Virus record (IMG/VR): IMGVR_UViG_3300037479_000437
Location: 233-64,232 of that record
Reading direction: 5' to 3' (one strand)
Length of the DNA: 64,000 nt
Origin: a virus
Shown: positions 38,352 to 54,570 of the stretch, piece after piece
Position numbering within the stretch: the first letter of the stretch is position 1
Layout of the letters: the number at the start of each line of letters is the position of its first letter
Notes under the pieces: generated by a model
What the model was told of the DNA's origin: nothing
Seen by the model: the letters and a program-made list of their open reading frames with translations, nothing else
Database searches by the model: none
Made by a program: the position numbers and the translations under genes

Positions 38352-39482
38352 CTAAAGGCAGGGGATTCTTTGGTCAACAGGCAGAGTAACCGCTGCCCTC
38401 GCAACTCGCGCTGTCCGAGCGAGTATGTTTCGCGCCGCATTATGGTCTCTCTGAGCAACATAGCCACAAACAATGCAACGGTGTTCGCGCACTGCCAGCG
38501 ACTTCTTCACTCTTGCCCCACACTGCGAACAGTCTTGACTGGTGTAGGCAGGCGCAACTTTCCAAACCTTCCGTCCAGCGTTCTCAGCTTTGGCGGTCAG
38601 GATATTCACGAAAGTTCCCCATGCTGCATCAGTGATGGCTTTAGCGAGATGATGGTTTTTCACCATCCCTTTTATGTTCAAGTCTTCAATGGCGATTTCG
38701 TCAAACTCGCGCAGCAATTGATTGGCCGTTTTGTGAAAGAAATCCTGTCGTTGATTCGCAACTTTCAAGTGTTGCCTGGACAACAACCGAACCGCTTTTT
38801 TACGATTTGCGCCGCCGCGTTTCTTCTTGCTGACTTTGCGTTGCTGGCGTTTCAAGCCAGCTTCAGCCGTGCGCAAAAATCTCGGATTCTCAATTACCTC
38901 GCCCGTCGAAAGGGTAGCAAAGTTTTCCAGCCCCACATCAATTCCCACGCTCTCGCCAGTTTTCGGCAAAGGCAGCGGCGCATCTTCTGCTGTGAAGATG
39001 ACAAACCAGCCATCCGCTTGTCGGCGCAGCGAGCAGGTTTTGATTTTCCCGCCTACTTCCCGCGACAAACGCAGACGAACAGAGCCGATTTTCGACAAGG
39101 TAAGCTTGTTGCCTTCCAACTTGAACCCGCTTTGCGGATAGGTGAACGAATCATAGCGGTTGCGCCCTTTGAAACGCGGGAATCCAACCTTGCCTTCGCC
39201 TTTCTTCACGCGAGTGAAAACCGCCTTGTAAGCCTTATCCAGTCGCTTCAACACGTCCTGCAAAACTTGCGAGTGAACACCTGCCACGTCTTCGCGCAAG
39301 TCTCTGATTGCGCTCAATTGGTTGGCTTGGTCGTAGTAGTTCAGCGAGGTTTTTGCTTGCTGGTAAGCAGCGCGGCGTTCCTGCAACGCGGCATTGTACA
39401 ATTCGCGGCACACGTCCAACGTGGCATCAAGACGTGCGGCGACGCGCTTGGACGGTTTCAGCTTGTACTTGAATGCTTTCAC
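38352..39482 (-). CDS. tnpB: RNA-guided endonuclease TnpB
   Basis: GIDVG / IEDL / RDHNAARNI RuvC triad; CSQCG...CIVCG Zn finger. Confidence 0.95.
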   Translation of the reverse strand: MKAFKYKLKPSKRVAARLDATLDVCRELYNAALQERRAAYQQAKTSLNYYDQANQLSAIRDLREDVAGVHSQVLQDVLKRLDKAYKAVFTRVKKGEGKVGFPRFKGRNRYDSFTYPQSGFKLEGNKLTLSKIGSVRLRLSREVGGKIKTCSLRRQADGWFVIFTAEDAPLPLPKTGESVGIDVGLENFATLSTGEVIENPRFLRTAEAGLKRQQRKVSKKKRGGANRKKAVRLLSRQHLKVANQRQDFFHKTANQLLREFDEIAIEDLNIKGMVKNHHLAKAITDAAWGTFVNILTAKAENAGRKVWKVAPAYTSQDCSQCGARVKKSLAVREHRCIVCGYVAQRDHNAARNILARTARVARAAVTLPVDQRIPCL

Positions 39483-51340: not shown

Positions 51341-51742
51341 ATGGAAGAACTGAACAAAACAGTCCCCGCGTATCGTCGTCCGATTCGGGAAATCATTGCC
51401 GATTTGAGCAAGCCGATCCCGGATCGCTTTCTCAAGGACAAAACCATCAAAGGGAACAAACTGACTTACATTCCCTGGTATCACGCGATCAAACTGCTTG
51501 ACTGGTTTGCGCCGGGCTGGTCGTTTGAAGTCAGAGAGATTTCCCCGACTGGCAAACAAACCGTCCTGGTGGTCAGGCTGATCATTCCCGCCGCTGAGGG
51601 CGATGTCTGGCGCGAAGCGACAGGCATTGAAGAAGATGATGTCACCGGCTACGGCGACACCAGTAGTAACGCCGAGTCTATGGCACTGCGTCGCGCAGCC
51701 GCTAAATTCGGCCTGGGCCTCTATCTGTACGATAAAAAATGA
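51341..51742 (+). CDS. Rad52/22-like single-strand annealing protein
   Basis: YIPWYHAIKLLD.FAPGWSFEV...REATG...SNAESMALRRAAAKFGLGLYLY. Confidence 0.88.
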   Translation: MEELNKTVPAYRRPIREIIADLSKPIPDRFLKDKTIKGNKLTYIPWYHAIKLLDWFAPGWSFEVREISPTGKQTVLVVRLIIPAAEGDVWREATGIEEDDVTGYGDTSSNAESMALRRAAAKFGLGLYLYDKK

Positions 51743-52565: not shown

Positions 52566-53190
52566 CACGCCCAGCCGGGCTTGGCCCGGCTGGGCGTGGT
52601 AAGGTAAGGAACCAGGCGCGGCCTGGGTTGAGCCAGGCCAGGTCAGGCATGGGTTGCGGCAGGCTCCGGCAGGGCTTGGATTGTGGCGTAGCACGGCAAG
52701 GTAAGGCCTGGTGTGGCAGGGATTAAGGTACGGCCCGGCAGAGCAGGGCCTGGTCAGTCGAGGCTTGGATTAAGGCGAGGCAGGCTTTGGTATGGCAGGG
52801 CAAGGCTCGGTTCGGCAAAAGCAGGGATTCAGGCCAGGCAAGGCTTGGCAAGGCGTAGTATGGCGGGAATTGAGGCAAGGTAAGGCAAGGCGTGACCGGG
52901 TAAGGCTTAGCAGGGATTGAGGCCCGCTTAGGCGCGTCGTGGTTAGGCTTGGCGAGGATTGAGGCACGGCTTGGTAAGTCAGAGCATAGCTCGGCACGGA
53001 CTCAGGCAGAACCGGGCAAAGCAGGAAATGGATTGCGGTCAGGCGAGGCGTGGCGCAGCATTGCAGGGTATGGATTGAGGCAAGGCGCAGCGAGTCAAGG
53101 TCGGGCTTGGCCAGGATTCAGGCGCGGCAGGAGTTGGCCCCGGCGAGGCAAGGCAGGGAATAAGGCACGGCGCAGCATGGCAAGGATTTA
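52566..53190 (+). repeat. GGY-NN pentamer array punctuated by GGATTNA-type heptamers (candidate guide-RNA array)
   Basis: Manual parse: 13 heptamers bound 12 units of 4-10 pentamers (modal unit 42 nt); 15-bp hairpin at the 5' end. Confidence 0.9.
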
Positions 53191-53258: not shown

Positions 53259-53945
53259 ATGACTGAGAAATCAGTAAAAATTCCAGTGGTTACGATCAAA
53301 CTGACCGGCTTGACCCCGATGCTTCATCACCGGGATAACATCGAATGGTCGGATTTGATGGAAAAATGGCGCAAAGACCCGAACAACAAAAAACTCGGCA
53401 AGGCGGGCGATGACCGGACACCCGCCTGGACGTGGATCGGCTCACTCAATCACGACAACCAAAGAGTTGCCATTCCCTCAGATAACCTGATGGCGTGCAT
53501 GAGAGATGGCGGAACGCTGGTCAGCGATCCGATGGGCAAACGCGGGAAATCACTGAAATCAGAAACACAATCAGGCTTCCAGGTATTGGAGGCTTTCTGG
53601 CCAATGCTGGTCAATGGCCGGGAAATCCCTTACAAGGAAATCGAGCCTCTTTTACAGGAGGATGATTTTACACAACATCAGCAACGTTGCTCTGCTCTGG
53701 GCTTTCAGCTTTTCATCAAACGTGCGCGCATCGGAACAGCAAAGCACGTTCGCGTGCGTCCGCAATTCGATAACTGGACTGCCACAGGCAGAATTGCCAT
53801 CACTCTGCCCAAACTCAACCCTGACATCCTGCTTCAGATTCTGAATCAGGCCGGGCTGTATAAGGGCCTGGGCGACTGGCGACCGGGAGCAAAAACGCCG
53901 GGCGCGTTCGGGCAGTTCAAGGCTGAAATCATCTCAGTAGAGTAA
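53259..53945 (+). CDS. Stand-alone Cas7/RAMP-like protein (Vipr-like)
   Basis: N-terminal IKLTGLTPMLHH, VAIPSDNLMACMRDGG, RVRPQF..W and C-terminal Gly-rich loop AGLYKGLGDWRP...GAFGQF. Confidence 0.75.
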   Translation: MTEKSVKIPVVTIKLTGLTPMLHHRDNIEWSDLMEKWRKDPNNKKLGKAGDDRTPAWTWIGSLNHDNQRVAIPSDNLMACMRDGGTLVSDPMGKRGKSLKSETQSGFQVLEAFWPMLVNGREIPYKEIEPLLQEDDFTQHQQRCSALGFQLFIKRARIGTAKHVRVRPQFDNWTATGRIAITLPKLNPDILLQILNQAGLYKGLGDWRPGAKTPGAFGQFKAEIISVE

Positions 53946-54044
53946 GGCCGGGAGTGAGGCACGGCATGGCGAGGCCAGACGCGGCCTGGCTCGTGCCGGG
54001 TAAGGAACAGAATCTGGCCTGACGTGGTTTAGTCAGGCCAGATT
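53946..54044 (+). repeat. Second short GGY-NN run plus 13-bp hairpin
   Basis: ggccg ggagtga ggcac ggcat ggcga ggcca gacgc ggcct ggctc; then aatctggcctgac-N8-gtcaggccagatt. Confidence 0.75.
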
Positions 54045-54075: not shown

Positions 54076-54570
54076 ATGAGCAAAGTATTTTTCGGTGGTG
54101 TTCCGACAAAACCGGAAGTTGACAAATTGATGAAGGAACTCGCGCCCTTTGAGCGCGGTCAGCTTCTACTTTATGAACAAGTCGAAGCCGTCATCAACAT
54201 AAGACGTGATAAAAACAGATTTTACACTGTCACTATGGCTTTTCGTAAACGATTGCTGAACGAATTCAACATTCTCACCAAAGCAATCCCGAACACAGGG
54301 TTCAAATTGCTGACCGAATCGGAGCGACAACGGGTTGATGAACAGAAACAAAAAGCCGGATTGCGTGGATTTGGCAGAGCGCATCGTGACATGACTCAAA
54401 TTCAAACGGAATTACTGGATAATGATGCGGATCGCCTGCGCCTTGCTGCCATGCAAACCGAAAGTAACAAAATGATTGGCGCAGCGCAGACATTTTATCA
54501 AAATGTCCAGCGCATTGCCGGAAAAGCGCCTGCTCAATTGCCGCGTTTTGCTGGCAAAACAGCCGATTAA
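54076..54570 (+). CDS. Basic helical protein, probable partner of the RAMP-like gene
   Basis: Next gene after the second repeat run; AAGGA RBS; Lys/Arg-rich. Confidence 0.65.
   Translation: MSKVFFGGVPTKPEVDKLMKELAPFERGQLLLYEQVEAVINIRRDKNRFYTVTMAFRKRLLNEFNILTKAIPNTGFKLLTESERQRVDEQKQKAGLRGFGRAHRDMTQIQTELLDNDADRLRLAAMQTESNKMIGAAQTFYQNVQRIAGKAPAQLPRFAGKTAD

Follow-up and report, generated by a model that had tools for sequence, protein, structure and literature searches.

Viral Interference Programmable Repeat (VIPR) is a CRISPR-related DNA-silencing system that was discovered only months ago. Two 2026 preprints describe three components: Vipr, which is a minimal RAMP protein; the accessory gene vap; and vrRNAs, in which GGY alternates with NN. 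The NN bases recognise double-stranded DNA, and one base of the target is skipped for each repeat (10.64898/2026.04.26.720920, 10.64898/2026.04.26.720927). The second preprint assigns one Vipr protomer to each YNNGG repeat, with the GGY bases hidden and the NN bases presented; a protomer that binds G1 and G2 leaves Y3 to the next one, whose pocket for this base does not admit purines (10.64898/2026.04.26.720927). Biochemistry has so far covered only the tail-capped type II guides. In the type II system of the Escherichia phage SUSP1 (PDB 36pp), each vrRNA has its own gene of ~100 nt, comprising 12 repeats and a pseudoknot tail of ~40 nt. The legend of Fig. S18 in the first preprint describes another architecture, the “staggered vrRNA arrays,” in which abutting vrRNAs overlap by 1 nt at their ends and have no tails or ribozymes; in the preprint text, confirmation by sRNA-seq is given for the other two vrRNA architectures and not for the staggered one (10.64898/2026.04.26.720920).

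Here we describe a VIPR locus in a 64,000-nt stretch of phage DNA (hereafter, the window) taken from a 64.6-kb IMG/VR virus record (IMGVR_UViG_3300037479_000437). The locus is surrounded by phage genes; its features are listed in Table 1. In a single-sequence phmmer search, residues 11–226 of the window Vipr matched SUSP1 Vipr (PDB 36pp_D) with an E-value of 1.6e-9, which reached 3.2e-17 with a family profile, at an identity of only ~25–29%. Residues H17, R138, D177, W178, and R179 (SUSP1 numbering) were invariant in an alignment including both proteins; the second preprint names them as the readers of G1, G2, and Y3 in the SUSP1 structure (10.64898/2026.04.26.720927). The AlphaFold (AF2) model of the window protein had a pLDDT of 94.6, and the Foldseek matches listed for it (50/50) were all type III-A Csm or type VII CRISPR effector chains, with probabilities of 0.94–1.0. 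The protein matched phrog_4652 and no Pfam family. Among 5.8 billion proteins, the nearest relative was 58% identical, and hundreds of relatives fell at 40–58% identity to the window protein. No close relatives were found in the genome contigs searched, and the GGATT array could therefore not be compared between near-identical phages. Judged by these identities, the window Vipr is a very divergent lineage.

The product of the vap1-like gene was 37% identical (E 5e-28) to that of the gene following vipr in the related locus L001. Its similarity to SUSP1 vap1 was collinear and weak (25% identity, E 6e-5); it matched phrog_5926 and no Pfam family. No cas families were detected by Pfam in the neighbouring genes, where Vipr was the sole RAMP protein. 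A Rad52/Rad22-family single-strand annealing protein (PF04098, E 4.3e-8) is encoded two genes upstream of the array. The window also carries an IS605-type element, whose TnpB-like ORF had its top relatives (60–69% identical) in MAGs of Blastocatellia/Pyrinomonadaceae and other Acidobacteriota; this is a weak hint that the phage host may be a soil acidobacterium.

Vipr homology, conservation of the GGY-contact residues, the adjacent GGY/NN array, the vap1-like gene, and the phage context together identify the locus, at the level of sequence, as a phage VIPR system, and thus as a system of a known kind. The array itself is quite probably the vrRNA (guide) array of this system, with tail-less guides bracketed by heptamers that divide it into separate guides.

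Table 1. Features of the VIPR locus and selected other genes of the window; positions are those of the window.
Feature	Position	Strand	Description
TnpB-like ORF	38352-39482	-	IS605-type element
Rad52/Rad22-family gene	51341-51742	+	Single-strand annealing protein
GC-rich 5′-edge hairpin	52566..52598	+	3′ arm already consists of GGY-NN pentamers; read from sequence
Lead region	52578..52677	+	Short degenerate GGY-NN units of 6, 2, 5, and 4 pentamers
Lead heptamer-like breaks	52608; 52625; 52651	+	GGAACCA; GGGTTGA; GGGTTGC
Main vrRNA array (probable)	52678..53190	+	12 units of 4-10 pentamers each, bracketed by 13 GGATTNA-type heptamers
Heptamers 1-7, in order		+	GGATTGT, GGATTAA, GGATTAA, GGATTCA, GAATTGA, GGATTGA, GGATTGA
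Heptamers 8-13, in order		+	GGACTCA, GGATTGC, GGATTGA, GGATTCA, GGAATAA, GGATTTA
vipr	53259..53945	+	228-aa RAMP protein, just downstream of the array; predicted GGY binder
Extra unit 3′ of the vipr stop	53951..54010	+	GGAGTGA at 53951, seven pentamers at 53958-53992, slipped GGTAA, GGAACAG at 54004
13-bp hairpin between the extra unit and vap	54011..54044		Scored terminator-like, minus strand
vap1-like accessory gene	54076..54570	+	164 aa

The window locus shares with the SUSP1 type II system the Vipr homologue with its G1/G2/Y3 residues, the vap1-like second gene, the location in a phage, and GGY/NN pentamer guides that flank the genes on the same strand. In contrast to the separate, tailed SUSP1 vrRNAs, the 12–16 guides of the window, mostly of 7–8 repeats, follow one another in tandem and are separated by breaks of no more than 7 nt. 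None of its units shows the type II guide architecture of 9–16 repeats followed by a ~40-nt structured 3′ tail. The legend text on the staggered arrays fits the window, since the pyrimidine that follows the 2-nt insert of a heptamer (see below) could be counted in both neighbouring units; the window architecture may therefore be that of the staggered arrays, as far as the legend, taken apart from the figure, allows a comparison (10.64898/2026.04.26.720920). In the text examined of the three VIPR preprints, no description of a GG-R-N-Y heptamer, of its purine, or of the bracketing of units was found, and that of the third (October 2026) contains nothing on guide processing.

The locus also resembles class 1 CRISPR arrays and Cas7 filaments, with the same RAMP fold and one protomer per fixed RNA step. 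In both systems, a conserved element stands on both sides of each variable guide, and guides turn over while the effector is conserved. Unlike CRISPR loci, however, it has no CRISPR repeats, no cas1/cas2, and no other cas genes, its guides are discontinuous, with information in 2 out of 5 bases, and its separator measures 7 nt versus a repeat of ~30 nt. Assignment to CRISPR-Cas was rejected, as the tandem-repeat search of the array (TRF) returned a 5-nt period only and Pfam no cas families. The general picture of what VIPR is remains unchanged by the locus, which extends it by a very divergent Vipr lineage and, as weakly hinted above, possibly by an acidobacterial host.

Layout of the probable guide array

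Re-parsing of the window showed that the main array is a non-coding run of GGY-NN pentamers interrupted by heptamers, all 13 of which lay exactly where the earlier note had placed them. The units contained, in order, 7, 8, 9(+1 slip)+1, 7, 8, 7, 7, 5, 7, 7, 4(+1 slip)+3, and 4 pentamers; the median was 7, the value found in 7 of the 12 units. A phase tracker recorded a +2 shift at each heptamer and no other +2 break between 52678 and 53190, which bore out the proposal that the heptamers break the 5-nt phase. The tracker also recorded the two +1 slips already marked in that note. The pentamers themselves were partly degenerate, with a perfect GGY in 59/84 and a deviating one in 25/84 (30%). The self-identity of the array reached its maximum at a lag of 42 (0.48), above that at a lag of 5 (0.45), against a background of ~0.25.

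The GGATT core was found in 10 of the 13 heptamers. It was also concentrated in the array, with 10 occurrences in 513 nt versus 82 in the other 63.5 kb (1.29/kb; ~0.7 expected). Position 3 was A and position 5 was T in all 13 heptamers, and position 7 was A in 11. In five of the 12 units, RGCAG abutted the following heptamer (core GGATT or GGAAT). Many units of four related loci (L101, L102, L104, and L109) carry a comparable additional 3′ element, G-AGCRN-GGCAA, ahead of the heptamer, an indication that the conserved motif at unit ends exceeds 7 nt.

The NN strings of all 12 units had been quoted correctly and differed from each other. They were A/T-rich, as had been claimed, with a GC content of 39% at the NN positions, compared with 61% at the first and 46% at the second codon position in the phage's own genes. 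The count of seven NN per unit probably omits the variable dinucleotide within the heptamer, whose last two bases may represent a further guide dinucleotide. Folding of the array RNA was no better than that of shuffled sequences (z -1.47), and the lack of significant folding of its own fits a guide coated by protein.

The phase parse further revealed that the array extends beyond the main block, both upstream, into the lead region, and after vipr, as the extra unit. The core GGAAC, which closes arrays in the relatives, occurs in the window both in the lead region and at the end of the extra unit. The 5′-edge hairpin had no match to an Rfam family.

Heptamers and guide turnover in related loci

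For comparison, 84 related loci were taken, and their arrays were dissected with a simple run-finder for in-phase GGY-NN runs. Among these loci, 7 nt was by far the commonest short interruption of the Vipr-linked arrays, with 82 cases in 20 IMG/VR loci, 70 of them distinct. The 70 distinct junctions gave the logo G69/70, G70/70, A63+G7, N, C58+T12, N, N, i.e., the consensus G-G-purine-N-pyrimidine-N-N, with GGAAC as the commonest core. Since position 5 was a pyrimidine in 70/70 junctions, the heptamer is most simply read as a normal GGY whose Y is set apart from GG by a 2-nt insert (GG + 2 nt + Y-NN). The inserted dinucleotide differed between loci and also within one array (AA, AT, AG, and AC in L094 and L111). 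The rule thus appears simple and conserved: GGY plus a 2-nt insert headed by a purine.

A heptamer stood first in 10 of 13 arrays and last in 11 of 13; likewise, the 12 window units are enclosed by 13 heptamers. The units of the relatives had a median of 9 pentamers (range 4–17). These lengths are close to the 9–16 repeats given for published vrRNAs (10.64898/2026.04.26.720920) and support their reading as guides. Guides are much more compactly packed in the window and the 20 related loci than in the systems with tailed guides.

On the Vipr tree, the proteins linked to heptamer arrays formed one clade (support 100/95), and the other large group was associated with guides carrying long tails of 30–70 nt. 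The window protein formed a long lone branch between the two groups, outside the heptamer clade, which weighs against the guide-boundary reading of the window array. A search of IMG/VR for the exact double-heptamer pattern with a 42-nt spacing gave 28 matches, all of them coding repeats or chance occurrences and none VIPR-like. In a 53%-identical relative, the tails between guide blocks contained, by eye, a hammerhead-like CUGAUGA...GAAA core (L004:3735-3790 and its repeats); no Rfam match to a hammerhead was obtained for the long tails of such relatives at E up to 0.01. Ribozyme-interspersed vrRNA arrays are mentioned in the preprint (10.64898/2026.04.26.720920).

Comparison of L101, L102, L104, and L109, which derive from uncultivated phages in IMG/VR, was the most informative with respect to guide turnover. 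Their Vipr proteins were identical at 222/222 or 220/222 positions, and the vipr DNA of L101 and L104 was 88–100% identical per 50-nt segment. As in the window, arrays lie on both sides of vipr in these loci, GGAWT-type heptamers (GGAWTNT) separate the GGC-NN units, and GGAAC closes the arrays. The four loci differ from the window in a Vipr only ~46% identical to the window protein, in the greater length of their units (6–13 pentamers), and in the additional 3′ element mentioned above. The numbers of units and the NN strings were all different among them. Different guide sets between conserved heptamers, combined with an identical Vipr, indicate on sequence grounds that guides are exchanged as units while the effector remains unchanged, a logic comparable to that of spacers and repeats. 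In addition, units common to two arrays (L076/L105 and L092/L098) aligned flush with the unit end, at the 5′ start, and a duplicate unit within L107 was flush at its 3′ end. Unit turnover and flush shared units argue for a multi-guide cassette in which the heptamer is the guide boundary. Of the proposal originally made from the window alone, i.e., a multi-guide cassette whose heptamer is a processing site or filament boundary, the boundary is supported by the adjacent Vipr, by heptamers that separate and usually bracket the units of 20 related loci, and by unit turnover; the interpretation as a whole is supported in part. The four loci form a natural series for following the gain and loss of VIPR guides.

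Possible role of the heptamer

The position of the insert suggests how the array might work. It would be transcribed from the plus strand together with vipr and vap, and each guide in the transcript would be delimited on both sides by a GGAUUNA-type heptamer, with no long structured 3′ tail. Because the insert falls at the handover from GG to Y and the Y pocket excludes purines, the purine-headed dinucleotide would sit at a protomer–protomer junction and would be expected to break the register of the filament. One transcript would then be divided into ~12–16 independent short RNPs, each built of ~8 protomers and covering 24 bp with ~16 specificity bases, provided that the last two bases of the heptamer also pair. 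The exposed 2-nt linker would be the likely place where some RNase separates the guides. In the strongest form of this model, the heptamer is a self-sufficient filament stop, at which one Vipr filament ends and the next starts without a tail, a ribozyme, or a dedicated processing enzyme. We advance this form tentatively and consider it possible, at slightly worse than even chances. Were it correct, no smaller natural units of RNA-guided DNA binding would be on record. If the heptamer either ends filaments or directs cutting, the partition of tail-less arrays into guides would be explained, and a recipe for multiplexed engineered VIPR guides would be at hand. Some of the window units may be weak or dead, because 25/84 pentamers are degenerate and most units, with 7 pentamers, are shorter than the published 9–16 repeats.

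The same array could be imagined as one long vrRNA, as a whole or in large parts, with the heptamers acting as tolerated hinges or kinks in a continuous filament. The second preprint reports that vrRNAs in nature can reach 30 repeats and that the length of the filament depends on that of the RNA (10.64898/2026.04.26.720927), and neither Rfam nor folding made any ribozyme or structured tail visible between the units. A continuous filament would, however, have to accommodate a purine in a slot described there as purine-excluding, together with a register shift of 2 nt where two protomers meet (10.64898/2026.04.26.720927). Moreover, the first and last units are also flanked by heptamers, loci of identical Vipr differ in their guides by whole units although the heptamers are conserved, and shared units align flush with the unit end. 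We therefore regard a long continuous vrRNA as unlikely. About equally improbable is a sequence-specific nuclease site that is composed of the heptamer with its biased flanks and cut by a host RNase, Vipr, or Vap in the manner of a Cas6 repeat, the geometry of the filament being irrelevant. The conserved motif does exceed GG-R-N-Y: in the related junctions, A predominates in the NN that immediately precedes the heptamer (49/70 and 41/70 at its two positions) and position 6 is a purine in 83%, and the window adds the A at position 7 and the RGCAG unit ends. Such biases could mean that the element is recognised by its sequence and does not act through geometry alone. In addition, GGAUU resembles RN|WUU, the RNase E preference. 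On the other hand, the commonest core, GGAAC, lies outside that preference, and the inserted dinucleotide varies between and within arrays, which leaves GG-purine-N-pyrimidine as the only constant part; Pfam recognised no nuclease domain in vipr or vap.

The guide-boundary reading was also weighed against the possibility that the array is a decaying, largely non-functional remnant, whose short units and heptamers are scars of slippage or unequal recombination. The degenerate pentamers, the two +1 slips, the very short lead units, and the absence of a detected target in the searches run (see below) would all be expected of such a remnant. Nevertheless, frequent internal degeneracy is reported for working vrRNAs (10.64898/2026.04.26.720920). 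The vipr and vap frames are intact, the key RNA-contact residues of Vipr are kept, and the heptamer is highly regular (GGATT in 10/13), its grammar recurring in 20 independent loci, so that decay is a very unlikely explanation. Regularly spaced GGA motifs also recall the CsrB and RsmZ sponge RNAs, and the 13 GGA-containing heptamers might accordingly make the transcript a sponge for a CsrA/RsmA-type protein. No Rfam match to CsrB/Rsm was found even at E up to 10, the GGA motifs do not lie in hairpin loops of the array RNA, whose fold was indistinguishable from shuffles, and the motif is fully explained by its linkage to vipr in 20 loci. The sponge was rejected on the basis of the Rfam and folding results and the Vipr linkage, and its probability is close to nil.

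Searches for targets of the guides

Most natural targets published for VIPR lie in coding sequence, where the skipped base coincides with the wobble position (10.64898/2026.04.26.720920). The earlier idea that the AT-rich targets may be promoters received no support from the present results. The window units were searched against 494 kb of local phage DNA with skips of 0–3 nt; nothing exceeded the shuffled controls. The longest clean unit, at 52767 (U03), had one IMG/VR match to its exact 18-nt pattern, with the skip on codon position 1; the matched contig gave no match to any other window unit. In metagenomes, the same pattern had 46 exact matches, whose extension into the flanks was at or below chance. 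The best TnpB match came from a Blastocatellia MAG; in 301 genomes of that class, a 20-nt pattern of the unit with ≤2 mismatches gave 7 matches versus 8 for the control. All of these searches had little power, and they speak neither for nor against targeting by the window units.

The long units of relatives were also searched against IMG/VR for matches ending at heptamers, which gave 1 and 0 matches, i.e., chance level. Two sister phages share a guide start of 8 repeats (L076:2299 and L105:2216). This start had 13 exact 16-nt matches in IMG/VR, none of which extended past the 8 seeded repeats. In 9/9 cases with a long ORF, the skipped base was at the wobble position, and the matches spelled T-[DE]-[IM]-S-G-[IM]-V-[CW] or [HQ]-T-[IM]-P-[DE]-[IM]-S-V. 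Finally, guides from two different long-tail VIPR loci, L066:2249 (17/18) and L052:2403 (17/20), matched the same site in a third related phage, L069:765 on the minus strand, under the 1-nt skip rule. These were the only strong skip-1 matches in the local DNA set, and they look like real inter-phage targeting within this Vipr family.
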